64,000 bases of DNA. Origin: Atractiella rhizophila (taxonomy: Eukaryota). Made by a program: the position numbers and the translations under genes. The notes under the pieces were generated by a model that was not told the DNA's origin, searched no databases, and saw only the letters and a program-made list of their open reading frames with translations. This document shows, piece after piece, positions 4,280-46,615 of the stretch. Within the stretch, counting starts at the first letter, position 1, and each line of letters opens with the position of its first letter. The DNA is taken from positions 201,189 to 265,188 of the forward strand of contig MU271181.1 of NCBI GenBank assembly GCA_021432655.1, in the 5' to 3' direction.

Positions 4280-7200
4280 ATGGCTTCCGGTAAGTGTTGC
4301 AGTTTCAGTGGCAGGCCATCTTGAGGGGATTGCGGCATGGTGTTCAAAGCACTGATTTTGGTTTATAGTGAGCCAATTTAAGACCTTTGAAGAAATCAGA
4401 AGCCATTTTCAATTGAAAGGAAATCGATTTCATTGTGCAATTTGCCCTATAGCCTTTGCGAATAAAGAACGACATCTTTGTTTACGACATGCCAACTCAA
4501 AACAACATCGAGAAAATGTCCAGCTTCTCTCAGCTTCAAACTCTTCCCACCTTACTCCAGACCCTTCCACGGTGCCATCAGACTTTTCTTTTGAGCCTGT
4601 TTATCGCCCAAATCGTTTGTTTTCAGAAGCAGAAAACCAGACTAGTGATGGCAGCCCGTTTCCGACATCTCTTAGTGGCTCTCATGCTCAACCTGCCCCA
4701 CAGAAAATTTGGATCAATCCTCTATTGCCATCAACACAACAATTGATGCAAGAGATGCTATTTTCTGTTCCTCCTCAAGATACCGATCCCAAATTTGGAT
4801 TTGATCAAGATCAAGATCAGGAGATGTATGCTCAGCAGGCATGGCAAGAACTTTGGACAGAGCAGACCGAGGACGAACGTGATACAGCTTTTATGGAGAA
4901 GATCCTTGGGCTTCAGGACCACTTAACTAACAAGTTCAGTAATCCTGATATGAATTTGGAATCCTTTCTGGTAGAGGTATCTGCCAATGATTGGTTTCCT
5001 TATGGGACACTTGAAGAAGCTTTGGCCGATCTCCTATTGAATCTTCCTCGACACCACATCTCAGAGACTCTCCGTCAGCTTTTATGGTGGATCATCCCAG
5101 AGCTGTGTTCTGCAAAGGCCTTCCTCCTCCACAATTACCTTCAAAGGATCGGTTGAACAAACTTCACCAACAGTTTCAGAATGACAATATTGGTCCTCAA
5201 AAATTTCAGCATACAAGCCACAAAGGCAATATTTATCATTTAAACGACATTGGGAAAATTATCTCTCAGGAAGTTGCCAATCCACTCGTGCGAAAACATC
5301 TTCATTTCTACCCAGAAGACAGCAGTGAAACGGTTAAAGAGATGTGGCAGTCATCAAAATGGAGAGAGGAACTTGATGCCAAATTTCTTTCACCTTCTAT
5401 CCACGTCAGAGGATCTTTATTTTTTGTTAACGAGCCGGCTCAACTGGTGGATGGAAGCTATTTCCTGCCTTCTCGCTGGTTTCTACTAGGAAGCGCTAAA
5501 ACTCTTTATGCTCGTGGCTTGTACCTTGACCCCAATAGAAGTGGAGGTTGGATAATTATGGAAGAAGAAAAGGAAGTACCAGTTTCAACATTTGAAGCCA
5601 ATATCACCAGCATCTTATCCAGACCTGGAACTTTTCATGCAAGTGCTCCGATCCTTCACAGGATGCAAGATGGCCAGCTCCACTCTATTAATATCCCTCC
5701 CGTCAACCCTCTTCGTGATTTGGCTTGTGGAAGAAAGGTGCTCAATGTCCCATTAGTTCTCTATTGCGATGACAGCTCTGGAAATGTATCAAAGAGGTGG
5801 AATAAGCACATTTCAGCTCTTATGACCCTTGCTGGTCTTCCTCATCGGGTTCAGCAACAGGAGTTCAACATCCATTTTATCGGAACATCAAATCTTGTTT
5901 CCGCGACCGAACTTTTGGAAGGTGTTGTTGAACAACTCAACAATTATTGGTCTAATGGGATCATTTCATATGACGATATCTCCGGGGAAGAGCTATTACT
6001 TCGCCCAATGGTCATAGTTTTTGAAGGGGATAACCCAATGCAGGCCGAAGCTTGCTCTTGCTCTCCCTCACTAGGGGTCAGTCTCAAGTTCTGTAATGTC
6101 TGTAAGGTTGGAGAAGAGAAGAAGGGAGATCAGTTAACAGAAACTGGAATTACAAACTTCATGAAAATTGGTCAGGCAACATCTATGAATGAGACAAAGG
6201 CTAAAGCACAGGAAATTCACCTTCTGGCAGCCAATCCCCGTTCCAAGACTCGAGTTATAAATGAACAGCGCAAGTCAGGCGTCAGAGATCCTATTGTCTC
6301 CCATTTTGCAGAGGAACTTCTTCAGCTAGCGGAATCTATGGAAGATGCTAAAGCCTCAGCTGACAATATTCAAACACGATTAAAGGCTCTTCAGGAGAAT
6401 CAACTTTCTAGAAAGTGGCATTATAATCCCCTGTTTGATCTTCAGGCATTTGACTATCATCGGGATATCCCATGTGAGATCCTTCATGGTATTCTACTTG
6501 GATTTGTGAAATATTTCTGGCGAGACAGCATCAGTGGCTTATCAGAAGGATAGAAGATTCTTGTTAGCAAGAGGCTTTCTGCAGCAGATCCAAATGGGCT
6601 TGGATGCGCAGCTCCTCGAGGAGAAACTCTTGTCCAATACACAGAGTTTGGTCGGTACAGACTTCAGGATAATTGCCCAACTTGCGATATTTGCTCTTTA
6701 TGACCTCCTTTCAAAGCCTCAGCTGGATGCTTGGATTGCTCTTGGTCACTTGTCTCGATTATTATGGTGTCCATCAATTTTGAATATAAATCAGTTCTGC
6801 ATGGAGCTTGAGACAGCAATCCATCATTTTCTGGATATGACAGCTCTCTTATCACCTCAGTGGTTCAACAAGCGCAAATTTCATCTACTGCTTCACCTTC
6901 CTCTTCATGTGCGCCGGTTTGGACCAGCTTCAAGCTTTGCAACTGAAAAATTTGAAAGCTATAATGGAATCATTCGTGGCATGTCCATTCATTCAAACCG
7001 ACAAGCCCCCAGCCTTGATATTGCCCGATCTTTTGCTGCTTATAGTCGAGTCCGACATATCTTCAGTGGAGGGTTTTAAAAGGATAAAATAACTGGAAAG
7101 TGGGTTCAAGCTGGGAATGGCGTACGTGGACTATTTCGAAACCTCAAAGTTCGTCTTCTATTGGGTTTGGCAATTGATATGGACACTCTGGACCCAGAGA

Positions 7201-17286: not shown

Positions 17287-18179
17287 ATGAATCTTTTCTA
17301 AGGTCATGTTTTAACAGCAATAAACCAGTTTTAAACCCTAGATTTCGTATTTACCTCGTTTTTGGGCTGTTGTTCCACTCTTGTCAAAATTCAACATGTA
17401 CATCAACTTCGAAACTGGAAATGTATGCCATCACGAATTGTCAATTTGATTGATGTTTCTCTGTAGTTATACAAAAGGCAATCATGCCCCAACTAAGAGT
17501 TTGGAAGGCTGGCTGAGATGCCAGTTGCCAACGATAGCCAACACTGCAAGCCGGACTCACAAGGTCGAACTCTTTCAAGAGGAGTAGAGAACGTCAAGCA
17601 ACCGACGTCAATTGCTGACTATCACGATATCACTGACTTGATTCCGAGCACTTCGCCGCTTGGTTTGAGGAGCTGAAGGGAGAGGGACTTGCAAATGGTT
17701 TGGTGATTCTGTGTTCTGGAACTTGAAGTCGACACCGGAGAACTCCACAAGACTGCAATCGTGAGACCGTTAAGTTGCAACCAAAGGGACCGATAGTCCG
17801 CATGGGGATCCAGCGCGAGCATGTCGCCTCGGGAGCGAGTAGGCATGTCTGCCTGAGGTTGAAATGTGAGCGCGGCTACGGTGCAGAAGGTAAACACTCG
17901 GTCCGACACCCCAGGCTGAGATCTATAATTGCCAGATCGCGTCAGAATCCCATGGAAGCGAGACCATGCAACAAGACAATGATAGTCCCGTCGCTACAGG
18001 GCTCTTAAACCCAACTTTCAAGTTTCCATTCAATCCCATCATGCTGAGAATGTCGTGTCTTTTCAGCTCTTCCTAGTCTCCCTACATGCCCCGATCTTCG
18101 CCTGTAACAATCTTTCACCCAAAAGACATTTGCAGGCGTGGTTGTGTTGTGGAATCTTGGGTAGCTTCACGTGACACGT

Positions 18180-21100
18180 AGGGCTCGACACCGTGCCGAC
18201 CCGTTGATTTTTTGGGCAAGACGGGGACGGGACGATTACACCCCGTCCCGTTTGTCCCGTCTGCAGGATTCTTCCCTTGTCGAGGACGGGAACGGGAAGG
18301 GGTACAGTTGGCTAAAACGGCTTGCCCACCGGCTTACACGGTTTGACAGGGAGGGAGGGAACCAGGTTCAGTAATAATGATCAAACATAATCAGTTATCC
18401 CATCAGCGACATGACACTTCACTGAAGTTCTTCAATCAATAACAATCGGTCCGTCTTGAGGCATACGGAAAAGCCACTCCAATTCTCCTTTCATCCTTCC
18501 ATCATATCTCCACCACGCCCTGAGGAGCATCAATTTGTGAACTGTTTCTGCTTTCAGGGAGGTGCGACACAAGGAGATAACATCCCGTCCAGATGAAAAC
18601 ACACGTTCAACGGCGACGGAGGAAGCTATAGCACAGGAATTAAGTGTGAAATAGAACAGGAAAGGCAGCAGTGAGCACACACCCGGAATACTGAGCACAT
18701 CTCGAGCAAGTGCGGCTAGTGTGCCAAATCGACCATTCTGACCTTGATTCTTCCACCAAAGTAAAACATTCGACTCCGCATTAGCAGCACAATCGTCAGA
18801 ATCTCCTTCCTTGCTGGTGAGGTGGTTCCAGTACCGTTCTAAAGGATGTAACTGTGAAAGAGCGGTGGTTTTTTGTACACTGGAGAAAATTCGTGCATTT
18901 AACTTATCGGCTGCTGTGGTCCGCTCTGGCACACCGACAGCTGGAGGAGCAGCGGATGGGGAGGGAGCTGGAGGAACTTGGGGAGGATTGCGTGCATATT
19001 CCCGATCGTACTTGAATTTCAGGCTTGACTTGGCTCGTTCGAGGGTCTGCGGATCAAGTCCATAGTCAGGATTTTCAAAGATTGCAGGTCCCATCCGGGG
19101 ATCCAACACTACAGGAAGTATTCAGTTCACTAACCAAGTGCATAAGCAAAACACTTACAAATTGCCCAGTAGTACCATGGATAATCATCAGTTTTGGCAA
19201 AATATTTTGCTAACTTTTCGTGAGCCTTGATCAAACCGTTCATGACAACTGGCGGAGCTGTGAAAGGCAGAGTAGCGACCACATCCTCCAACTTCTCGAA
19301 GAGCTGGAGGAAAAGCAGGACAACACTACTGACCGTAACACAGGAAGTGCTGGACATGAGAGCGGTTACATCAGCAAACTTCTCCAACCACGTTGTAACG
19401 AGTTCAATTGCAGCCCAGTCATCTTCGGATAGGCATACACCTTTGAGATCCTTTGTTTGAACTGCCGAGAAGTTGTCCACTGCTTGCCTAAATGCCAGCG
19501 CTCGCTTCAGCATGAAACATGTTGAAGACCATCATGTCTGAACATCAAGGAGCAAGAGCTTCTCCTTTTCGTCCAGATCCTGCCTCGCCGTATCAATGCA
19601 ACGAAGCCACCAATCTTTCTTTTGAGGTGACGACTTAGTGCATTTCACGATGGTTCGCAGCTGGTGCTCAAGATATAGAACAGCAAGATAAATGCGTACC
19701 CTTTGAATGGCAGTGCCAACGTCAGCGTTGCTCTCAGAACCGAGAGCATCCCCATCTCTCTCCCTACTACCACCAACACGCTGCTCAAGGTCCCCAGCCT
19801 GATCAGAAGGAGCAGTGATATTCTCCAGCGTGCTTTGATATGGTTCGTGCGCCTCATCCTCCAGTGTGACAAGAGCTGGGTGCCCTAGTTGAGGTTGCAC
19901 TGAGAGGAGTGGGATCTGTAGCTGCCACAGTTGAAGAAGAGCTGCCATCCTTCACTTTGGGCCATGCGCCAACTGAATTGAGGAGTTCGATGACGGCAAG
20001 ATGGACAATATGCGGAAGACATCTTCCTCTGCGTTCGGCTGCTGGGAAGGATATACCATCCTTGGCAAACAGCAGCTCTAATTCTTCCATCATCATGTCG
20101 TTGGAGCTTGCGTTGTCCGAAACAATCACAGAAATCTAGGCTCCGTTCAGGTAAGTACTGTGACACCACTTCTTATAGAGCAAATACGTACCTTTTCCAA
20201 AATCCTCAACCGTGTGAGAACACCGTAAACCAACTTGGCAAGCTTTTTCCCACTGTGCTCTCCATGCACCTCAACGAAATCCAACAAATCGGTATTAAGA
20301 TTCCAGTTGGAATCAGCTGGATGGCCACAGATCGCGAGGAAACTCGAATTAATACTGGCGGTCCAAAGATCAAGGGAAATAGCGAATTTGCATTCCACGG
20401 ACTATAAAAGTCATGGGCCAATGCCAGTGTGACAAAATAAAATAAATGTACCTCATAGTATTTGATGAGATTATCCCCAAGGCTGTCAGAATAATCCGAA
20501 GTTACACGTCGGATCATTGTTGAAGAGGGAATCTCCAGTCAGGAACCGTGGACATAGCTCAGCAGATCCCTCAACTCCTGGCATTCAACCTCCATAAAAG
20601 GCTGCATGCTGACCGAAACCCAACGCATGAGGAGGTATTTGAGCCTTTCAGGATCTACCTTCTGTAATATAATCTATAAGTCCCATGCTTTGCCAATAGC
20701 GAACGAAACAAACCTCATTGCCATTTCTTTCGAAGGACGACCCCTTTGCAATCGAATGATTCCTCATCCATGCTTGAATACTACCTGGAGCTGGCACATC
20801 CTCATCCTCAGGCGGCGAATCCCTGCGCAACGACTTGTATTCTGGAGTCGTCAGTTCCTTTCTTGCATATCTGATGTCGGTGTCATTCAGGTCCTCGCAG
20901 GCCGGAGTATTTGCGAGTCATTGGAGGGCTTTTGTGACATATTGTCCATGCTTGTTCTGCAGATGATTGATCAAGGCGTCGTAGTTGTATTTACTTTCGC
21001 TCGTCTGGCGAAAGTAGAGGCTGCATCGGCGGCATTGAAAGATACGGTCGTTAGGAAAGACAGGGCGAGTTCTGAATGCTCCTTTCGGAACGGCAGTATG

Positions 21101-22270
21101 ATCTTCAACATGATGGTAGAAGAACTTGCACGTCGCCTTGCCGCGAGGTTCGTTATTGCGAGCTCTCTGAGTAACTTGTCAGGGTGAACAAGGAAGTAGC
21201 TAAGCATCAGGTACGCACCTTTCTCCGGGATTCTGAACCGAACCCCATTTGCTGCTCGTCATCATCAGTTGTTTCCTATTGCAACTTGCTATTAGTCGGA
21301 CGGTCAAAAAAGAATGGTTGACACCTACTCGCACCGCTCCCGGCACCTTTCATTTCTTCTTCTTTTTCTGCTCCTTCTTCTTCTGGGCTCTTGTCTTTCC
21401 CTTCTGGGTTCCATCTTCCTTTCTTCTCTCCTTCATCGCATCCGCCGTTGCTTGATTCATCTCTCTGCCATCTTCTTCTTCCTCCATAGCTCCAGCTCCA
21501 ACTCCGTCTTCCTCTTCCTCCTCGGGCACAAAGTCCAGGTCCCACATATCCTCTTCATACTCCTCCAGCTCGCCCACTTCAATCAGGATCGTTACAATAG
21601 TCGCCCCAACTTTATTGAGGTAGCGTAACAGTTCGACCATCAGTGAAGGGAATGCCGCGTGTTGCTTTCTAGTCTCGAACCAAAGCTTGACGAACGACGA
21701 GATACCTGCCCCGCCGCCAATCCCCGCTGTTTTGAGCTGTTGAGCTGAGAATTGGACGAACTCGTCATCCTCGTCCAGTGGTTGAGGCTCATCAGCAGTG
21801 GTTGACATTACGAGGGAGAGAAGGTGGAGGGAACTCAGAGCCAAAGTTGAGTTGGTGTCCTAGAATGGAATGCATGAGGAAACCATTCATACGAGAGCAA
21901 TCAAACAAGTATCTTGTCGCATCATAGCTACTCTGGTTCGCATCTGACATGAGCCTGCAAGTGAATATTAATCTATCAACAAATGTTGATGCCAAAAAAA
22001 GAGGACAAACATTTCATGTAGCTGTTTCTTCTGCGCTCTTTCCGACAGCGATGTTCCATCTTCGTTGTTGTTTTGAGCTAGGTCGACTGGCTTTTAACTC
22101 TGTTACTCTTTATACCAGAAGGCTGAAATTGAAGTTTCGGTTGATCCATGACTGTGCAGTGACGGCTCTTGGAGCAGAAGTACACCCAGTGGCAGCTTTT
22201 AAGGATTGCACCCTCTTTGCAAGGTCCGGGAATACTACATCACACGGGACCGTGTACACGCCGACGTGCG
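18180..22270 (-). mobile_element. hAT transposon with spliced, inactivated transposase (~21844 to 18432); distal TIR not found
   Basis: Motifs ISLDLWTAS, HSGKKLA, SDNASSND, RCLPHIVHLAV, LDVQT*WSST (TGA in place of the usual Arg), ASSVAVERVFSSGRD. Left end TAGGGCTCGACACCGTGCCG with CCCGT subterminal repeats. Confidence 0.85.
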
Positions 22271-22625
22271 AAAAGAAAATGAGTAATACTCATCAGAAAT
22301 TCCCTGAAACACATCATAACATGTCCATGACCTGCCGATGCAGCATCATCTTTCTCTTCCACCCTCCTTCCTCCATTTCCGCCACCACCCTTCACTTCTT
22401 GGTGCAGCTCCATACTAAGATCCATTGCTTTGGTAGAGATCGAGAACCCGCGAGCATTGACAGAAGCAAAATTTCGAAATGAGGAAAGGAAGGAAGGGGG
22501 TACATGATGATGGCCGGGTCATCCTCAGGGTACCTATTCCTGACTCTATCCTCAGCCTCAGCAAGTCATCTGCAGCAAGACAGCAAGAGGAGGAGGAGCG
22601 ATAGTGGGGTGTGAGATGAGGGGTT

Positions 22626-22684
22626 TCACCAGAAGACAAGACTGGCTAGATCCTGTTTCGCTAAGGCTTCTTCAGTTCTGGTGA
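22626..22684 (-). ncRNA. Type I hammerhead ribozyme
   Basis: Minus strand reads UCACCAGAA-CUGAAGA-A-GC(CUUA)GC-GAAA-CAGGA(UCUAGCCAG)UCUUG-UC^UUCUGGUGA: 9-bp stem I, full catalytic core, minimal stem II, stem III with one G-U pair, GUC triplet. Predicted cut between 22635 and 22634. Confidence 0.9.
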
Positions 22685-22717: not shown

Positions 22718-22723
22718 TTTATA
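22718..22723 (-). promoter_or_regulatory. Possible TATA box ~35 nt upstream of the hammerhead (pLTR promoter)
   Basis: TATAAA on the minus strand; position alone is the evidence. Confidence 0.3.
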
Positions 22724-23211
22724 AGTGAAGGAATTGATGGGGATTGCCCATCGCATCATGCAGAGTTGTTATCTGCGCTTCAACGTAGGCTGAGGTTCTT
22801 TCTTGTGTTTTCTTTATTCATTGCAGTGTTGAGTCCTTATGTGGAAGAAAATAGGGTGGAATGTGGTCTTTGTGGCGCCTTTTTGGTCGCTCAAAGGGTC
22901 CTGACACCCCCTCTATGGGCTGTCTCTCCTGCGTTTCCCTGTTCCTCAAGATGAAGCGGCAATGCATCATATGCTTCTTGTGCTAAATGGGGATGCTCTG
23001 GATGATTCAGGGCGGTCATGGAGAGTCCTGAGGCGTCTATTCCATTCCTTTTCGATGGCAAAGTGCTGTGAGATCACTATTTTTTGCATCATTTCATCAG
23101 CGGGGCTCCTGGTCTTTGAGTGGATGGTGCGATGGTTTTATATCTTTGCTTGTGTACATTCCTATCTTTTTTTCTGATCTTTGTGGTTTCATCACAGTGA
23201 AGCGTTGGGTC

Positions 23212-23796
23212 ATGGGAGAGAATGAGAACGTCCCCTTGGTTCTCTCTTATGATCCCATCAGTGATGAATTCTCCACCCTCATGAATTCATATATCGTCAA
23301 TTCTGCAGTGCGCTTTATGGATGGACAGTTCCCCGTTCTGCTTCATCCAGGGGAGAAGAGGTGAGTTCTCTCGATTCCTGTCTCACATTAGCGCCATTTT
23401 ACTCATTTTTGGATGTAGGAGGCGCTATGAACCCTATCATGTAGCCTGGTATCAGCGTCAAGGCACCAGGGGCAGTCTTAGGACCACTTATGGCGATCCC
23501 ATGGTGTGGGCACGGTCCAAGAACTTTTTCTTGACTGCTGTGGTCCCAATGGGTTCGTTCTCTATCCTATTTCCTTTCATATTTTCGCCTAATCCATGTT
23601 TATAGAGATATACTGTCGTTTATCGCCTAGACAGTTCCGAGCGATCATCAGGAGGAGGGAGAAGGAGGGATGGCAGTATGATGATTCTGCAGATCATGAT
23701 CTGGAGAAGGAGGCTATTGACCTTTGCAAAAGGCACTCTGTATTGCCTCACAAGGTACCTTGGGGTCAGTTCATAGAGTTGGAGGCTATGAAATAA
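23212..23796 (+). CDS. 157-aa hypothetical protein, three exons, antisense to the RT
   Basis: Exons 23212-23360, 23419-23552 and 23606-23796 (474 nt); introns GTGAGT..TAG (58 nt) and GTTCGT..CTAAT..TAG (53 nt) keep the frame open from ATG to TAA. Confidence 0.7.
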
Positions 23797-24077
23797 ATGT
23801 GATTCATTCGATTCATCTCAGTATTGTCATTGCACCATGAGAGGCTGAGTTCTATTGATTCCTTCGACTTTCTTTGGGGCGAGGGCCGCCACATAACGTC
23901 TCAGAAGTGTTCTGAGGGCCGCCTTTCATGTGTACATGTCTAGTCTTGCATCAAAGTTCAAGGGATTGATTATGAGCTTGAGGTTTGCATCGATGTGGGT
24001 CGTATCACGTCTTCACAGTTTGAACAACAAAAAGGCCGCCTGAACCCCAAAAGCCTCCTTGGGGCTCAGGATACTCT

Positions 24078-24437
24078 TTTCATACTCGTCTGCTTTCGTC
24101 ATATCTTGGTTCGTCAAGACGTAACCGCGCAGAGGAGGTGCTGACGAGCATATGAGGGCTTTCCATCAGACTCTGCTCACAACTCGAGCGGTAGATTGAC
24201 TTGCGAGGCAGAGGTTGCTACCTTCGAGCCATCAGCTTCTGTGTGATGGATTTGCCTCTGAGATCCAGCTGCACGAGGACGGCTCCCTTGCCTATCTTGG
24301 TTTGTCGGGACGTAACCGTGTAGGTGGTTGCCGGCCGCTCAGCAAATTCCCATCATGAGGATCTTTGTCCTCAGTCAGGCAGATTGACTTGCAAGGCAGA
24401 GGTTGCTACCTCTGAGGGTTCAAATCCTCATGATGGG
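24078..24437 (+). ncRNA. Array of four hairpins (A-B-A'-B') with conserved apical cores
   Basis: Core A 24102-24129 vs 24293-24320 (24/28 identical); core B 24190-24223 vs 24378-24411 (32/34). Basal stems differ in sequence but pair, e.g. a perfect 14-bp stem 24349-24362/24424-24437. Strand suggested by G-U pairs. Confidence 0.65.
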
Positions 24438-25133
24438 CTCTTACATCTCCCCACAAGGCGAGGGAGGATATCAAGCTCTTTAGGCGATGTATTGTTGTGA
24501 TTTCCTCAGACTCAATCATCGTCGCTCGCTCGTCGTCATAAAGACCTTTTTGAGCCTGACACATGCACAAATGGAGGCAGAGGCGACGAAGCCAACTTCC
24601 CTCTGAAGTCTGGGAGGGCCTGTTCGCTCGGCGCTGCCTCGCCTCAGTCTCGCATCCAAGGATGGAGATTTTTCTTTTCGTCAACGACGACACATCTTTC
24701 TCCCCAATGGGTTCGATGTGAAGGCTTCTCCTGAGAGAGACCCACCTCATGGTCGCCTCTAGAAGGGTCCATTGCCAATGTCCCTACGACCTCTTATGAG
24801 ATGTTGCAGCATTCGGATTACCCCGCCGATTCCTGCTGAGCATACCCGCATCGTCCGGTAGGGTTTTTGCACGGCGCCCCCCGACATGGTGACCCCAAGC
24901 TAAATAGCAAGGTTCCAGCACGATCTCTTTACAGGGGCGAACATCTAAGTGTCCCCATTATGCTCAGTAAGTCTCTCGTCAACACCAGCTTCAGGGTGTC
25001 CTCATCGCCAGCTCGTTGGGCGACAGGTTTGGGTGATTCGTTTGTCTTTCATGTCTAGCCTTTCTGCTTTCGCTAGTAGTGTTTCGCCTTTGGTTCTTTA
25101 ACATGGTACTTTGTATCTGTAAACAGCTTTCAT

Positions 25134-26205: not shown

Positions 26206-29089
26206 TCATGTTGCATATCGATTAGATTCAGTATCCCTTGGCCTTTCTAGCTCTGCATACAGCGACGTGCAGTTTGGGGGTAGCTTGAAGCATATTTTCG
26301 CTCTTTCAGAGATTGATGGGGGCATGCCAAGTTTTGTGGCAGTAGAGGCAAATTCATCGAGTGGGGGGCGAATCCTGTCCCTTTCTGTGAATGGGTTCGA
26401 CTCCACTTTGAAGAGGAGTGGGAGTATATCTTTCTTATTCTCCTTCTCTTCTAGATAGCGCAGACGATCTTTGTGCCTGACCATAGATAGTTGTGACCTT
26501 ATGATCTTGAGGGGGTATCCTCTACGTTGGAGGCGTACCGTGAAGAGTGAGATCATTTTGTCAAACTCTTTGACACTCGAGCACGCCCTGACGTATCTGA
26601 TGGCTTCTCCTTTGATGAACCCGGTCTTCTGTTTGTGCTCGTGGTACGAGTGAAAGGGAAGGTAGAGGTACTGGTTCATCTTCTTTTGAAAGATCTTGGT
26701 GGCCATCCGTCCGTGAGAGGGCAGTTCCTTGTCCTTATAGATGGTGAGATCAAGGAAGTCCACAGACTTGGTGGACAGACAGATCGTATGTGAGACGTAT
26801 CGTGGGTTTCAAGGAGTTGTACTCGTTGATGAAGGCTTCCGCTTGGTCCCGTGTTCCAAGGATGAGGGCAAAGATGTCGTCAATATATCTCTTGAAGAGT
26901 ATGAGTTTGTTGGTGGAGAGCCAGCGTTCAACAAGGTCCTTCTCGAGCAGGTGGAGGTATAGATTCGCATACTGGACTGCAACTGGAGTCCCCATGGCAG
27001 TGCATTCTTCTGCTGGTAGCACCTGCCCTGAAACTGGACGTAGGTCTGTTGTAGTACGAATCGTAGCATGCGAACGATGAATTCCCTCTTGGGGCGTTCC
27101 AATTTGGTATCCGATTGCAATATCTCATCTATGCTCCTGATGCCGTCTTCCGTGTCGATGTTGGGATAGAGTGACTCTACGTCAGCAGTCACGATCCAGA
27201 GCTGTTCCTCTCCTCGTTGCTTGCTGTTCTTGAGTTTGTCTTGGAGGAGGCGATCGAAGGCAAAGATACGGAGCAATTCTGAGCTGTCTTTGAGCACAGT
27301 AGGGGAGGTGCGCTCAAAGGGCAGGAAATGTTCTGCCAACCACCACTGCGACATGAAGTACGTGGCCCAAGTCATTGTTGGACATATCGGGCGACTAGAA
27401 GGGCTCGCCTTGTGGACTTTTGCGGTGATGTAAAACTTTGGGATGACCCATTCTTTCCTTTGGGAGAGCCACTTGAACTCATTTTGATTTATGTGTCCTT
27501 CGAGTTCCAACTCGTCAGCAATCTCGATGAGCGAGTCAAGTTCGTCCCTCGTGGCAGCAAGGGCCCTCTCCTCATTTGTCACAGCGTAGACATCTTTATT
27601 TTCGAGGTGCATCAGTGCTTGTGAGACATACCAGCCCATATCGACGGCCGCGTAGCCGAGATTCTTGTCTGTCAATATTACAAGTATGTCTGGTTGTTGT
27701 AACAAGCATTCTAGGCCTCTTCTTGAGTGGTTTGACATGTTTTGCTTGTCTGCACTATGTACAGAGTCTAGGTTCGCTTTCAGAGCATGCTCTAGTTTCC
27801 TCAGGGCACTTTCCAGCTCTGGAGAGCTCTCAGGGGGTTGCCAGGCGCTCATGGTCCTCCATCGAGGGAGCTCAGAGTTTTCTTTGTCCTGAAAGTAATG
27901 CTTGAGCCTTATGGTCCGTTTGAAGCTTTCGATGGCTTCATCGATGACGTCTAGGCGTGGTTTCGGACAAGGTATGAATTTATTGCCTAGCCTGAGGAGG
28001 TCCTTTTCTCTTCCGCTTAGTCCTTTCCCCGTAAGGTCATGTACGGGGCAATCAAGGATCCCAAGCTCGATGAACCTGATCACGGTCTCATCAGGATTCA
28101 GATTGTGTTTTTGCAATGTTTGTCTGACGCTTTCTCGAGTTCTCTTTGCACGATCAATGATGTGTAGCATATCCTTCATTCCACGTTTCTTTGAGAAGTG
28201 ATGTCTGTTTCTACTTGCTACATGCGTTTTCCTCCCCTGCCCCTTCCTCTTTGTGATCCCCGTCGATCTTGTCCGGGTCTCTGCGGTCTGTTGCGCTTGC
28301 TTTTTGCCTTTGGGAGTGTTCTCAGCAGGTTCGGTGCCAGAGGAGAGTAGACTCACTCGGACCCTGTTCAAAGTGTCAAGCTTTCTGCTTTCATGTCCGA
28401 GGCGTTTTTGCTGCTCGAATTCATCTGCTGCAGCTTTTCCCTGGATGATGGCGTCCTTTCTGAGTGCCTCCCATGATTCGGAGGCCAGCTTTCGTTCCCT
28501 ATCAATGGTATCCTTCTGCTCAGGGTGGGCTTCGGCGAGGGAGGTGTAAAACTTGTTGAGCTTTGTCGCCAACTCGATCACTATGCTTCCCTTTGCAGCA
28601 CAGTAACCAAAGCAGCGTTTTGCTTGGAGGTCCTTCCATTGTGCAATGGTCTGTACAGCCTTTGTGACTGTGACTTTCTTCATGTCTTCTAGCTGTTTCT
28701 TTAGATCTCCATCCCCATCGACTATCGTAGGCCAGGCATCGATCCATGGTTTAAAGGTCTATGGGGGTTGTGAGGGGCGTAATGAGGATGCTATGAACTT
28801 ACTTTGGGTGTCTTTTCATCACTCAAATCCTTGATCAGCTGTTGTGAAGTCCTGTGAGCAGCGTGACCCCTCTTAGTTAAAGCCTTTTTTATCGAGCGGT
28901 GATGATTTTTAGTCTGTGGTTTGCTTCTGAGAGTAGAACTCACTGAATCTTTGTAATTGCAGCTCTGATTAGGGCAGCAGCGTGGTCCGATATGGCTGAC
29001 CCATTCGTGATTGGTGGATTCGTCATCATCTCCAGCAGGGCATCGCCAGCAGAGTCGTTGCTGGGATCTATCATATCGATATCTGACAT
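26206..29089 (-). pseudogene. Penelope-like reverse transcriptase with two 5' introns and frameshifts
   Basis: Motifs LLRLGNKFIP, TDKNLG, FYITAKVHK..RPI, TADVESLYPNI, TAMGTPVAVQYANLYL, RYIDDIF, VDFLDL, YLPFHSYH..GFIKGEAIRYVRACS. Exons 29089-28944, 28851-28803 and 28758 onward splice in frame. Frameshifts at ~27003, ~26775 and probably ~26272. Confidence 0.9.
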
Positions 29090-29499
29090 GTTATCTGTAT
29101 AGGTAATTATCAGAAGTGTTTACTGATATTTGCTAGCTTTATTTGGACGAAAATTTCGTCATTGAAATGCAGGAGGAATCCTTCAGGCCACCACTTAGAT
29201 GGCCATCAGGAGACCAACGCTCTCCAGGTGTGAATCTAGCGAAAACACCTAGTTCACAGTGTCCATAATGGAGTGACTGGAACACCCTATCCTGAGTGTA
29301 CTAGTGCTCAGTGAAAGGGAATCTCTCTATAATGCAAGGCTTTATGCTCAGGATGATAATGCTGAAATCAGATGCCAGTGGTGTTTGATTTTGGGGTTGG
29401 AGCTTGGCATGGACCTTGGAGGCATATGGAACACTTCCAGAGGCATACGGAACACTTCATGGCCACATGGGATCAAAGTGGGCATTTGTGTTCTTAAAG

Positions 29500-32030
29500 G
29501 AGATGCCTGAAATTGAGATGGCGTCGGTAGAGCTGCACGTGTCGCAGCACATAGCCCTTCCTGCTCATCTTTCTTCTTTCTGGCACGAGCTCGGATGGGT
29601 GGAAGTTGTGACGAAGAAGCTCTGTTGCTAGCGGATCTTATAACGTCTTGACTAGAAAGTTGGTGGGAAGGTGAGATGGAGTTGGAAGAACTAGATCTCA
29701 TCAAAAGATGGCTTAGGCAGAAGTTCACCAAGAATATTGCTATGATCATATCATCACATCTAGGAGCATGGAGGAGGTGAGTCTCTGTGTGGGGAATATT
29801 TAAGGAAAGGATTCTAATACAGCCACTTGTTCTTACGCAGGTATGCACACTAAGTTCAGACAATGCAATTTCGTTGGCGAAATTAGGCGACGACAACCGC
29901 TTTCTGTTATCCAGCCCTCCACGCGAGCTACACACACATACCTCTATCTCATTTCTCTTAATATTTTCAGTCTTTCCCACAAGCAGCTCGAATATATCAT
30001 GAGAAGATACATCCTTTCCTATCCATGTCCAAATTGCTACTCAGCACGATCTTTCATCAAATCCTTATGTGCAGCAACTCGAGTTGAAGGTATTTGAGCT
30101 AGAGAGCTCTTTGGAGAGGGAACAGATGGACAAAGATAAGTGGAAGAAGTTTTACAAGGAGAAGGATGAGGAGGTGGATTGATTGAGGCTGGACATTGAC
30201 AAAGCCCAAAAGGTTCTTCCGTCTGCGGATTCCATGTTGAAACAGCCCATGGGAGGCATCGGAGCGATGGCCACGGAAAGAGGCACTGGAATATCGGCAG
30301 AAGATTCGATCCAAAAGCCAGTGAAACCATACCGGCCGATTATCAGCAAGGAAGATGCCGATTACCTTGGGATCTTTTGGGAAAGCAGACAAGCAGCGGC
30401 CTCAACACGTATCGGTGCTCAGAACAATATCCTCGATCCAGTCCAGGTGCTACATCAGCTCATCTTCCATGAAATCGATAATACTGTCATGGGAGCAGCA
30501 CAGTTGTCCAATGCAACCGCCGATGTCATCCAAAACGATGCCACCCTCTACACGAGAACCTATCTTGACACTACGAAGTCGATAAGAACCAGACAGGTGT
30601 TTGCAAACCACCTATCTTCCAAACATCCTGCACAAACTCGAGGAGGACTACAGTTCAGTTCTTTGTCTTGGAAAGACTGACTGGATGGCACGCATCTTTG
30701 TCACCGGTGTCCTGAGGAATAGGAGTGGAAGTGCCTACAACTATGATGATGAGGATGATTCAGCAGATGACGAGGATGGAGGCCAGATTGCTAAAAGAGG
30801 AATGAAGAGGAAGGCGAGTATCGATGTAGGTGTCGCACTGCAGGAGAGGAGAAATGGGGTAGAGAGATTGCATGCGGATCATGGTGAGCATCTCTCTCTC
30901 CTTGGGCACAAATGGGGCCAAAGAGGACCAGGGCTTGAAGAAAGCGGTGCTTCTATCGGCACAGTGGTAAGAGTGCTCGAGAAGACAATGAGCAGGAAGA
31001 GGTACAGACCAACGGTATGTTTTCAACTTCCTAAATTGCTCGACACTGAGTACTCTGCACACAGGCGAATCTCCCGAATGATCCACTTAGAGAGAAGAGG
31101 GCCAGGCAGGACAAGCTACTTGAGAACCAAAACAGCTCCGTCTCCATGCCTGACAGCATTAAGGTCTCCATTGGTGCGTACTTTGTTTGTCATGACACTC
31201 TCCGCTATTCGAAAGTAACATGACAACAGGGGAGCTCAAAACAATGGTTTCCGACAATGATTGTCTCAGAATGCTGGCTGCATTTATTGAAGACGGTGTG
31301 CTACCTCTCTGCGATGCCAATTCTCGTACCGTCGAAGGCGAAACACTTGCACAATCAGCGACAAAACACCTTCTCATTGCCGTAACATTTCCCATTCCCT
31401 TGGCACGACATTAGAGCTAGAGGGAAACAAATTGAAAGAATGGCACCTCTTGCTTGGACTCTCGCGAACCCTTCGTAATTTCCTCCACGCGAAACCCGAC
31501 ACCTTCAACTGCCACTAGGACGGAGGAAGAACGAAGGGTGATAATCTCTTCCATCACACTCGACCCAACAACAAATTCATCTTCATCTGCATCACGAGGT
31601 CCAGCATCCACTGATCTAGTGATACAGTTCGGTAGGTGGTGAGGAGAAGAATAGTGGATTTCGGAAGACGAGAATATGGAATCTGTTGGGCTGGGGAACG
31701 ATCTGGGCACTAGCTAGACCACAATACCAACGGTAACCACAAGGATCAGACTTCCCCAACACGGAAAGAGGACCATTCATGAAGAATTCGCATGCACAAG
31801 GTTTAACAATCAGTTTCATGGACACGCTCACTCCAAACGCGGCAGTCCGTTTTGTGAATACGCTGGATCAAACGGCCTTTGCTGGGAGATATAAGAGTGG
31901 TTCAAAGGAAAGCTGGGATGTGGCAGTCCTCCTTACAGTTCCACTTTGAGCTCGAAGTCTGACCGACATGGATAGAATGCAAGGTATGTGCTGACCAGAC
32001 GCATGTTCATCTATTAATGAGCGCTTGATT
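29500..32030 (+). pseudogene. Multi-exon hypothetical gene, probably disrupted
   Basis: Successive plus-strand ORFs (30183..30680, 30601..31218, 31220..31414, 31454..31642) with GT-AG intron-like gaps; no recognised domain. Confidence 0.35.
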
Positions 32031-38100: not shown

Positions 38101-39508
38101 ATTTTTAAGGAATGGTAGAAGTAATAGACAACTGCACGGCGGTGACTGTAGGTGACTGCTAAACCCTGTGCTTCCATCGATCAGTATTTTGACAGCAATG
38201 CAGCGTACATACAATGTCTTCAGTTGCCTTTGGTTAGCGCCCCGGAAAGTTGACTTTGCAACAATGGAGCCATCAGAATGAAGCTGTCCACAATTTAGCT
38301 ATCATGAGATGTTTCACAGGCACATCATGTAGAGCGCACCTTTCTCCACTTGTTGTCCTTCTTTGAGCCATCAATTTTCAATGGTAATATCTCTGCAATC
38401 TCAGCTGCCTCGATATCAATGGGGTCAGGCTCCAACTTTGCATCCTCCTTCTCCTCTTGGTGTTGATCCTTCTCATTGAGTGTGAAAGCTCCATCTGGTC
38501 CTATCGGATCAACGAGACCTTCAGGCAGAAGAATAGCGTGGATGTGGTCTGCGACTGCACATAGATATGCTTTACGAGCACGGAGAATGACTTCAGGAAC
38601 CGAAGAGGGGGACGTTTGAAGCTCCTTCCACAGAGTAGCAAACGCTTTCAGACCATCTTGATATTCGACATCGTTGACAGATGAAGGGCGCCATCCTGAG
38701 AGAGCAGCATGGAACGGGTCGTCATTGTCTTCAGATTGAGATTCCACTTGAGCAAGAAGAGACGTCGCTTTAAGGTAAAGAGGCTACTGTTGCTATCCCT
38801 TGCATGTTACACTGTTCTCCACATAAAGTGTGAGAACGTACCGCATTAGCGATGCACGGCATGCTCCCATTTGCAGTGATAAGAGTCTTGAGACAAGCAT
38901 AGCCAGGTATGTCTGTCAACCTTGACACTAGTCAGTCACCCATGGACAGACTTTGTAAGAACTCACTCCGCCTCCAACCCTTGCTTCCTCTGCATCTCAC
39001 TCAAAGCAGTTCCATCCTCATTATTCCATTTAACCATATCCCTCAGCTTACGTTGCCTTTGAGGTCTCTTCTGCCGGTCTTCCTGAGGAACCATGATTGC
39101 TATGCGAAAGCGAAAGGGAAAGTCCGAAGAACTTGTCTGATCAGAGCTGAAAGGAAGGCACATTTTATAGACCGGGTCGTGGTGTCAGATCGACCAAGGA
39201 GAGTGAAGCATGAAGGCCTTCGAGAAGGTTTCAGGTGCAGTTTCGAGTATGGCTCGCGCCGCTTGCAGAATAATTTGAGATGTCGTTTTGACACAAGTGA
39301 ACAGGGAATGCGAAATACAAACTCATGGCTGTAGAACTAGACTCCATCATGGATTCCGCAGTATCAAGTCGATCCAAGCCGGACGGCACAGGAAGGCAGA
39401 CGTATCGTATCGTATCGGTGCTAGAATGGTGGGAGAGTTGGACGGTCGGGTACGGAAACACGTATCGTTCACGTACGGCAGAAAATTACGATCCGATAGC
39501 CATCCCTA
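35175..39508 (-). mobile_element. Full-length hAT transposon (4334 bp) with inactivated spliced transposase (~38747 to 35373)
   Basis: 15-bp TIRs TAGGGATGGCTATCG; flanking duplication GAAGATGAA; BED-like finger (FKCNHC..TLRNHMENH), PHTGENMA, TDGASNN, CMPHIVHLAV, LDVQTRWGST, LSRLAQDILSIP, VEHIFSGARD. Confidence 0.93.
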
Positions 39509-40099
39509 GAAGATGAACGGGATGTGGACGATAGATTCTGGTAGGTCAGGAATGGTACTAACTGACATTAAACAACTGAAGGGGAGTGGGAATATTAGGG
39601 TTAGTGTAGTTTTCCTCCAGCTGAATCAAAGAAAAGGATGTGTCAACCTGACTGCTGCTCAGGTTATGTCCATGAGTACTCCTGCTCCAAACTTGGCGCA
39701 AAAAGCTCGACTGCCTCCTCTCTTGTGCCATGAACAACTTCCTTGGGAGTCTGATCCTCTCTAGTTTAGAAGAATGAAGAATCGATGAAGCACCTTCCAA
39801 GCCTTTCCCACATGGCTTGTGATGTCTTTTCTATTCCAGATATGTCCATACATCATACACACAGAGGAAACAAGTTGGATAAAATGAATGTCCATTGCTG
39901 ATAGCGCAGTTGCAGTGGAGCACATTTCTCTAGTGCTCCCAATACAATTGAAATATGAATGGCTCATATGGACCCAGAGTCCATCCCCTAATTTTCCTCA
40001 AAGTCTCTGTTGGGAGGGAGTGGGAGAACAAGTTGGCCGCCCATATAAAAGAGAGATGGAGGTAGTCATGAATAGTAATGTGAATGGAAAAGGATAGTG

Positions 40100-40300
40100 T
40101 ATTTCTGCGAAGTGTTTTTCCAACACAGCGTACCTTTCTTTGACCCTCATCCAAAACCGTCCGTACTGTCACGACCCATCTCATCCTTCGAACTGCCCCA
40201 CCCCAACATTCCAGGACGATATGACGCGACAGGACGAGGACGAAAAAAAACATCGTCCGGCCCGACGATGCAAAAGCCAGCTGGACGATAGCCATCCCTA
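40100..40300. mobile_element. Orphan end of the same hAT family
   Basis: CGATAGCCATCCCTA at 40286-40300 preceded by ACGA/CCGT-rich subterminal sequence; no partner TIR seen. Confidence 0.75.
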
Positions 40301-41351
40301 CTTCAAAGTGCCATTTAAATATTTGTGGAAGAGGTGACATGAGATTCGACTGTATGACTGTGGGGATGAAGGCTGTCGGCTTCCTCGATCAAATATTACG
40401 CATCGATTAAGCCCGTGTGGCGCAAGAATAAATTCAGACTCCTGGGCTGAAAGTTCTGGACTATCAGTGAATTAAGGCTTGCACCAAGCGAAAGAGCCCG
40501 GGATTAGGACAACCCAGGAGTGTGCAGGGAGTAGGGACTGACAATGTGATGAGTTAGGATTGATGCCTGGGAAGGACTATCACGAAAACTTTGGATCCTC
40601 TCATTGGTCATGTTCAACCTACATGCAACGATGAATCAAGAACTTTCCCAGCAGAGAAAGGAAGGGAAATCCTTATATCCTTGCTTTACAGTACTAGGAG
40701 GTTCAAAACCTTAATCCTCCAGGGGTCGACGTCGATACTGCGGAATCCATGATGGAGTCTGGTTCTACAGCCATGTAAGTTCGGTTACAGAGATCTGATT
40801 TAACTTGAGTTCTGTCGTCTGTCGTTGTCATGGAATCATCATTTAGCATTCAATGCACGATGCTACACTCCTGTCCCGTAACGTCATTCTTAATCCCGGC
40901 GAACAAGTTTATCTTTGGAGTTCGCGGCGTTGTGTGATCTGTTCTGTCGGCATCTTGAGAGAATGGCATGGTGCAGGTGAAGGTGTGTCTGTTCGTGTTT
41001 TTCCTTTTCGGGGACACAAATTGACCTGAATTCAGCATTTCGTCGCCCCTCTCATTGAATTGAATTGCAGAAATACTTCACACCAAGGAGCAGAGTGTGC
41101 GAGTGTCCAGTGCAGTGCTCTCCAGCATCTTCCCAATCATCAGTCATCTGTATTTTCGGTTGAAAGGGGATTTTTCTGTGGAAATTATACCATTGTCATT
41201 CATCATTCAGACGCTTTTGCTTCGTGCGTTCAATTCTTAGATATTACATCAAAGAAACAGAGAAATTGAAAGGTTGATTGTTGATTGATCAACATCCGGA
41301 TCTAAAGGAAGTAATTAGTGCAACTTCAGCGGCACCAGAAATCAAACGTGC

Positions 41352-45959: not shown

Positions 45960-46615
45960 ACGATGAGCGATGAGTGAAAAAAGCGGAGCAAACAATGCTT
46001 ACCTTCATATATCAAAAATACAATTCGCTATTACTTCACCATTATCCATCACATTTTAGGAGTGAGTGGGAATGCAAGACCTGAGAGCCAGCTACATCGA
46101 TGTATAATTCGTAGTAAGAATGAGCTAATATCAAAAAATCGGAGGAAAATACATACCTCATATATATCAAAAAATGCGATCCCCCATTGCTTCGCCATTA
46201 TTCATCATATTTAGACGTAAGCAGCGTGAATGGGAGGCCTGTGATGTAACTTCAATGACGTCTAATGTGTATTGAGAATGAGCAAATATTAAAAAAGCGG
46301 AGGACAAAATAAGCACATCATATATATCAAAACATGTAATTCCCCATTGCTTCACCATTATCCATCGTATTTAGACGTGAGTGCGGCAAGTGATGGGACT
46401 GAGGGCTAGATATTACTACTTATAATGCGTAATAAGATTGAGCGAACATCAAAAAAAAGCGAAGGAAAAAATACACACCCTATGTATGTCAAAGATAAGA
46501 TTCCCTATTACTTCGCCATTATCATTGTATCTCAGGCGGGAGTACGTCGAATGCAAGGCCTGAGAGCTAGCTATCATGACGTATAAGGCTTATTTGCATT
46601 GAGGGGATATTAACA
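45960..46615. repeat. AT-rich diverged tandem repeat, ~155-163 bp unit, about four copies
   Basis: Recurring TATATCAAAA..ATTRCTTCRCCATTAT and AAAAAAGCGGAG motifs near 46010, 46165, 46325 and 46485. Confidence 0.8.

Follow-up and report, generated by a model that had tools for sequence, protein, structure and literature searches.

Hammerhead ribozymes have been described in fungal Penelope-like elements, where, according to the account in PMC4209133, they have a large helix III, the Serpula ribozyme cleaves as a monomer, and a model involving circular RNA was proposed. A stem II of two base pairs is described as common in hammerheads (PMC3088659). For Penelope-like elements generally, one description places the transcription start site in the terminal repeat, or pLTR, and still calls the role of the hammerhead unclear (PMC8557442). 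Two groups of elements are of particular relevance here. Coprina elements of fungi contain a single ORF or, in some cases, a second one located upstream of it, as judged from their published description (PMC13159263). The Terminons of bdelloid rotifers are described as carrying an Athena reverse transcriptase (RT) and DEDDy exonucleases, as reaching up to 40 kb with many ORFs, and as having a telomeric repeat immediately after the hammerhead (PMC6431247, PMC5408684). Here we analyse a hammerhead motif in a stretch of 64,000 nt from Atractiella rhizophila (the window). With a probability of about 0.93, the motif belongs to the pLTR of an endonuclease-less Penelope-like retroelement, present here as a dead copy.

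Organisation of the element in the window

On the minus strand the element comprises, in order, an RT, a DEDDh exonuclease, a 2.4-kb 3' region, a TATA box and the hammerhead (Table 1). The RT is 35-39% identical to full-length RTs with RVT_1 matches and contains GxKF and DKN motifs; GxKF and DKG/DKN are named as Penelope-type RT motifs in PMC8557442 and PMC13159263. Solved structures gave no match to the RT profile. The reading frame is disrupted by two frameshifts, near 26990 and near 26780. Starting from the ATG at 29089, it would be open for 714 codons with both predicted introns removed, compared with 49 unspliced. Pfam searches identified no GIY-YIG domain in the window ORFs or in the RT ORFs of eight out of eight relatives scanned, and none of the four genomic GIY-YIG matches lies inside the element. 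The exonuclease of the window copy retains all of the catalytic motifs, D-x-E, D and H-x4-D.

Table 1 Features of the element and its neighbour in the window
Feature	Position	Strand	Basis or remark
5' untranslated region remnant	29090..29358	-	at least 54 further nt common to two other copies
Penelope-like RT ORF, no GIY-YIG	26206..29089	-	frames; GxKF and DKN motifs; RT identity
Predicted spliceosomal intron 1, 92 nt, in 5' part of RT ORF	28852..28943	-	frame opening
Predicted spliceosomal intron 2, 44 nt	28759..28802	-	frame opening
DEDDh (DnaQ-like) 3'-5' exonuclease ORF, 318 aa	25134..26090	-	Pfam RNase_T, E 1.6e-18; motifs
Long 3' region	22724..25133	-	comparison of genomic copies
Hairpin in 3' region	24349-24437		inside element
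TATAAA, candidate promoter box in the terminal repeat	22718..22723	-	presumed promoter function
Type I hammerhead ribozyme motif	22626..22684	-	sequence, folds, shuffle control, covarying counterparts in 7 related loci
Predicted cut, GUC triplet	22635/22634	-	hammerhead motif
3' tail remnant	22582..22625	-	other copies run 154 nt further and end CCCTAACCC(TAA)n
Neighbouring hAT-type DNA transposon, outside element	18175..22581	-	Dimer_Tnp_hAT at 18435-19121

The genome was searched at the protein level with a related RT, and only the family of the window element was found (14 matches). One copy (L033) covers the part corresponding to window 26494-23143 and then continues into the hammerhead, and three others (L031, L038, L039) cover overlapping parts. 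The same order of parts in other copies indicates that RT, exonuclease, 3' region and hammerhead form one unit of approximately 8 kb, with the exonuclease and the hairpin inside it. The initial annotation had proposed that, if the hammerhead marks the pLTR, an antisense gene would also be internal to the element; this holds by position only. The 3' region contains a pair of antisense frames, 110 and 106 codons long (23032-23605, plus strand), neither with a Pfam match. A frame similar to these was observed in L033. Other copies carry an additional 465-640 nt within the 3' region, at 23143/23140.

Both ends of the window copy are damaged. The 5' end is cut at 29358 by a different repeat of 2 kb, which occupies 29355-31388 and has many copies in the genome. 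At the other end, a deletion joins the element tail to the interior of the hAT transposon and has removed the end of the element together with approximately 210 nt of the hAT end; three hAT copies share approximately 210 nt more upstream than the hAT of the window. Two candidate boundaries were rejected: position 22773, which reflects an internal deletion variant (L050), and position 22582, past which other copies extend and at which the window copy is joined to its neighbour by the deletion.

Three further features were observed elsewhere in the window. A frame of 512 codons at 5015-6553 has a weak match to Transposase_21 (E 0.007) and is possibly part of a CACTA-type transposon. Inverted repeats of 42 nt, 98% complementary and 1368 nt apart, at 39324-40775 look like the ends of a non-autonomous DNA transposon. 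An AT-rich stretch at 46014-46533 contains four copies of a tandem unit of approximately 160 nt.

Sequence, fold and conservation of the hammerhead

The presence of a type I hammerhead motif on the minus strand is confirmed, and all 14 core positions are canonical, as first claimed. Helices of nine, two and seven pairs surround the core, with helix I open. Stem I consists of nine Watson-Crick pairs between 22684-22676 (5' strand) and 22634-22626; CUGAAGA lies at 22675-22669, GAAA at 22659-22656, and GUC is present. The two pairs of stem II (G22667-C22660 and C22666-G22661) enclose a loop of 4 nt and are preceded by the extra A at 22668. Stem III contains seven pairs including A15.1-U16.1. G-U pairing in this stem had been noted correctly, but two such pairs are found and one had been named. 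The distances in the initial annotation also agree with the sequence: the motif lies 3.5 kb downstream of the end of the RT frame, and the TATAAA, placed there about 35 nt upstream, is located 34 nt before stem I. This box is intact in 17 of the 19 copies from the same family that were examined.

The hammerhead fold is the minimum-energy structure of the bare 59-mer (-16.0 kcal/mol) and is still dominant in an intact copy with up to 300 nt of flanking sequence, in which pair probabilities were 0.6-1.0 for stem I, 0.45-0.8 for stem III and only 0.2 for stem II. No tertiary contact between loops I and II was identified in the hammerhead. The folding z-score of -1.48 is unremarkable taken alone. 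A descriptor search of the 64-kb window returned one match. Among dinucleotide shuffles (n=300), a loose descriptor match of any kind occurred in eight and stems as long as those observed in none; taken by itself, the core pattern occurs at 650 genomic sites. An Infernal search with the Rfam hammerhead models, proposed earlier as a check, returned no match at the gathering score, and relaxing the threshold to E 10 brought up no hammerhead family; the Rfam searches of the window, a 500-nt stretch and ten related loci were all negative. This indicates that the motif is not in a subfamily modelled by Rfam and has no bearing on its class.

Within the family, 29 genomic loci were examined, of which 23 span the hammerhead, two contain part of it and four are without it. 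Conservation of the core across copies is partial: nine of the 23 keep all 14 core positions and the core of the other 14 is damaged. The nine include one copy with a 16-nt duplication in stem II and two loci (L002 and L004) that represent a single duplicated locus. Nine of 17 core substitutions fall on a single CpG, where the rate is 19% compared with 3% elsewhere in the core, and changes outside CpGs affect 45 of 1311 positions in the hammerhead versus 152 of 2764 in the flanks. The core losses look like decay after insertion, the evidence being weak either way. Within the family, no covariation was seen beyond a change from U-A to U-G in 12 of the 23 copies.

An alignment of RTs led to 20 metagenomic loci (17 close, two distant and one fragment). 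The RTs of the relatives are 38-41% identical to that of the window; a metagenome scan with a single protein and a viral scan found no relatives. The strict descriptor identified no sense-strand hammerhead in these 20 loci and one weak antisense match. A relaxed descriptor allowing an extra A before G12, which was chosen after seeing the data, gave seven matches against a shuffle mean of 0.03. The seven loci, six of them distinct, share the arrangement CUGAAGA-A-stem II-A-GAAA, and stems I and III change in pairs around an invariant core: pair 15.2-16.2 is C-G, G-C, G-U or A-U, and the second pair of stem I is A-U or G-C. MAFFT failed to register the stems, and pairs were therefore counted from core-anchored positions. 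Ten other close loci gave no hammerhead motif; nine of these are without both nearby marker sequences and one (L081) begins downstream, so that they probably do not reach the motif site.

The surroundings of the motif are similar in these relatives. TATATA occurs 86-112 nt before the core in seven of seven (background 7-26% of 130-nt bins in the same loci, and 21 of 492 in the window), and a telomere-like stretch follows 145-181 nt downstream in six of seven. The motif lies before the RT in six of the seven and after the exonuclease in the seventh. One locus (L066) is bounded by the same terminus at each side, and another (L068) begins with approximately 15 CCCTAAA repeats and is longer than one unit. 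Several other properties were recorded. The relatives L065-L076 use TTTAGGG-type repeats, and the observed/expected ratio of CpG is 0.00-0.10 in the seven close relatives measured among them, compared with 0.69 in the window element. In L066 (4517-7650) and L076 (5084-7876) a conserved non-coding stretch of 1.65 kb with internal repeats follows the exonuclease; after it come an A-run and a telomere-like stretch, then more than 1 kb of simple repeats, then the hammerhead.

These observations bear on whether the hammerhead could be a chance motif or a functionless passenger in an old repeat. The missing Rfam match, the modest z-score, the 14 damaged cores and the frequency of the core pattern in the genome all speak for such an origin, but stems of this length never arose in the shuffles, the core damage is concentrated on one CpG, and the same core recurs at the same place with covarying stems in elements whose RTs are only about 40% identical. 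This explanation is largely refuted by the cross-family conservation, and we regard it as very improbable.

A structural role has more in its favour. The fold might act mainly as a structural or slow-cutting signal, with an uncut linear RNA as the template and the hammerhead aiding RT binding or presenting the telomeric stretch, as has been proposed for Terminons in the account of PMC6431247. Sequence on either side of the cut site is present in all 23 spanning copies, as would be expected just as well from an uncut linear template. Assembled contigs from three of four sequencing runs also bridge the cut site; these data are contigs only, which could derive from DNA and in which start, end and strand are unreadable. 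Three contigs that start near one place in the core were excluded as evidence. The motifs of the relatives are atypical: position 17 is U, G12 is preceded by an extra A, and in none of the six that were folded was the hammerhead the structure of lowest energy, suggesting that they may be slow or inactive. Against this, the core in the window is fully canonical with GUC and its fold is the lowest in energy, a variant in one run (C17 to A) still obeys the NUH rule, and the telomeric stretch lies approximately 200 nt away, not adjacent to the hammerhead. A mainly structural function appears rather unlikely, and a self-cutting terminal-repeat hammerhead is preferred.

The 3' end of the element and a proposed route of replication

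The hammerhead is not the end of the element. Every fetched copy that reaches past the position equivalent to 22582 has a common tail that the window lacks, and in intact copies 207 nt separate the cut site from a reverse telomeric repeat, the last 154 nt being those absent from the window. Of 39 genomic matches to the tail used as a query, 31 terminate at CCCTAACCC, the reverse telomeric repeat; the remaining eight comprise the query itself, the window, a single 5' match and five matches that break off earlier. Element ends carry 1 to 3.5 repeats. The telomeric repeat of the host is TTAGGG, of which 30 long tracts occur, mostly at contig ends. L035 is a head-to-tail junction in which the tail and repeats are followed by the RT start codon, and L031 is also a tandem junction.

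Copies share this 3' end and have ragged 5' ends. We searched the short copies fetched for 5' ends coinciding with the cut, which would be a trace of cleavage, and this candidate was rejected: the 5' ends lie at -90, -52, -32, -29, -5, +24, +24 (a contig start), +29, +55, +77, +102, +116, +160 and +169 relative to the cut, with none at 0 and no cluster there. In this fragmented assembly most copies of the family are internal and not at telomeres. Only one of the 30 long telomeric tracts has an element end attached, and on two telomere-bearing contigs (C71 and C120) the element copies are 64-89 kb away and oriented opposite to terminal addition. One 47-nt end fragment (L091), beside a scaffold gap, is capped by approximately 15 telomeric repeats.

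Two patterns in the placement of copies were observed. On one contig (G000:C3), five copies between 11977 and 183852 all have one orientation, which is the expectation from serial addition at one chromosome end. Behind five copies (L007, L009, L012, L020 and L030) a common repeated sequence with CCCTGA/CCCTAA-like units occurs in the 400 nt past the telomeric end; it may represent a favoured insertion target or belong to a subtelomeric repeat.

The availability of the fold, the arrangement of the parts, the common telomeric end, the ragged 5' ends and the tandem junctions are observed, and they can be combined into a route of replication that, taken as a whole, we favour with some reserve. Transcription would begin downstream of the TATA box, immediately upstream of stem I. 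The hammerhead would then probably cut itself as a monomer after GUC, as its fold and the behaviour of the tested Serpula motif suggest. Where units lie head to tail, a repeat of this cut one unit later would release a unit-length RNA consisting of tail, telomeric repeat, RT, exonuclease and 3' region. Ends produced by ribozyme cutting can be rejoined by host ligase, and those of the unit-length RNA may be joined to give a circular molecule, or else be held together by the 9-bp stem I. The internal CCCUAACCC, whose terminal position in the copies is observed, could pair with the TTAGGG 3' end of a chromosome or of a break, and the RT would copy from this primed end back across the hammerhead. 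Such copying would yield copies with one 3' end, ragged 5' ends and possibly more than unit length.

The tandem junctions L031 and L035, the TATA box in front and the position of the motif before the RT in most relatives also fit a role at the 5' end of the message. The hammerhead could mainly form the 5' end of the RT message by a cut approximately 50-60 nt after the start, allowing cap-independent translation of the RT and the downstream exonuclease ORF; type I hammerheads in the 5' UTRs of fungal viruses are described as needed for translation (PMC13725137). The predicted introns, in contrast, point to ordinary capped and spliced transcripts, and the common 3' end is left unexplained by this role alone. 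As the principal function it seems improbable, and it is compatible with, not exclusive of, the self-cutting and unit-length RNA proposed above.

The exonuclease and comparison with Terminons and Coprina

Three of the 17 close metagenomic loci end inside the RT, and all of the other 14 have a DEDD exonuclease ORF directly behind it, two of these (L070 and L075) being cut short. The DEDDh type, with H-x4-D as the third motif, was found in all 12 complete relatives and in the window; the two distant loci gave no exonuclease match. In a tree of 51 RTs, the window, L070 and the L066 group form separate branches of one group (SH-aLRT 100). This group was originally selected with a profile built partly from the window sequence, and most of its members come without genomic context.

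Paralogues of the window exonuclease in Atractiella rhizophila (NCBI) are 85-93% identical to it. Its nearest outside relatives are bacterial DnaQ-like proteins, with 31-43% identity, compared with 19-26% to the exonucleases of the metagenomic relatives. The window, relative and bacterial enzymes form three long branches and their N-terminal extensions show no significant match, so that one capture of the exonuclease and two are indistinguishable. Speculatively, the most likely function of the enzyme would be to trim the DNA primer or the RNA end so that pairing can prime synthesis.

A broader reading, which we put forward tentatively and consider doubtful, is that these elements represent a widespread and so far undescribed clade of Penelope-like elements that have lost their endonuclease and captured a DnaQ-like DEDDh exonuclease that takes its place. 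This enzyme would shorten 3' ends, whether at internal breaks or at telomere-like seeds, to the point where pairing with CCCUAACCC in the RNA can occur, while the TATA-hammerhead cassette would supply a unit-length or circular template. If true, this would explain how an element lacking an endonuclease came to be inserted internally some 30 times, with no more than 1 to 3.5 telomeric repeats, and the Terminon plan would have arisen a second time, independently, outside rotifers.

The window ribozyme motif itself is ordinary, a further example, in a dead copy, of the published fungal Penelope-like hammerheads. It resembles those of the Coprina clade, as reported by Cervera and De la Pena (2014, PMC4209133), in its type I topology, large stable helix III, G10.1-C11.1 pair, extra nucleotide between A9 and G10.1, position in the terminal repeat and monomer-competent fold. 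As in descriptions of Coprina, the element has a DKN motif, no GIY-YIG and a reverse telomeric repeat at the 3' end. In contrast to the Coprina description, RT and hammerhead are separated by a DEDDh exonuclease ORF and 2.4-3 kb of 3' sequence, and most copies in this assembly are not at telomeres. Coprina is characterised by a single RT ORF with no enzyme ORF downstream, whereas the window and 14 of 14 relatives carry the exonuclease.

KolobokD elements are eukaryotic transposons that also carry a DEDDh (DnaQ) exonuclease as an accessory gene, but are described as animal DNA transposons with a DDE transposase and a TREX/ERI1-like nuclease, without RT or ribozyme (PMC9587614).

The pairing of hammerhead and Penelope-like element is already published in fungi, and the RT-plus-DEDDh layout is the less ordinary part; no report of this layout was found in the literature searched, which covered Terminons and Coprina through secondary accounts. 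Its occurrence in three separate branches of one RT group takes a Terminon-like plan beyond rotifers and offers a concrete idea for insertion by telomerase-related RTs without endonuclease. The family also provides a compact fungal test case, with a canonical monomer-type ribozyme motif, a TATA in front, a telomeric end 207 nt behind the cut and relatives with atypical cores.

In plan the element resembles the Terminons of bdelloid rotifers, which, in the accounts of PMC6431247 and PMC5408684, likewise combine an endonuclease-less Penelope-like RT and an accessory 3'-5' exonuclease with a 3' hammerhead and reverse telomeric repeat, head-to-tail chains, and 5' truncations capped by telomeric repeats. 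Unlike Terminons, the element described here is approximately 8 kb long, has two ORFs, encodes a DEDDh enzyme and has a 200-nt spacer from hammerhead to repeat. It is an endonuclease-less Penelope-like element with the plan of a small Terminon, and it falls outside the definitions of both Terminons and one-ORF Coprina elements.
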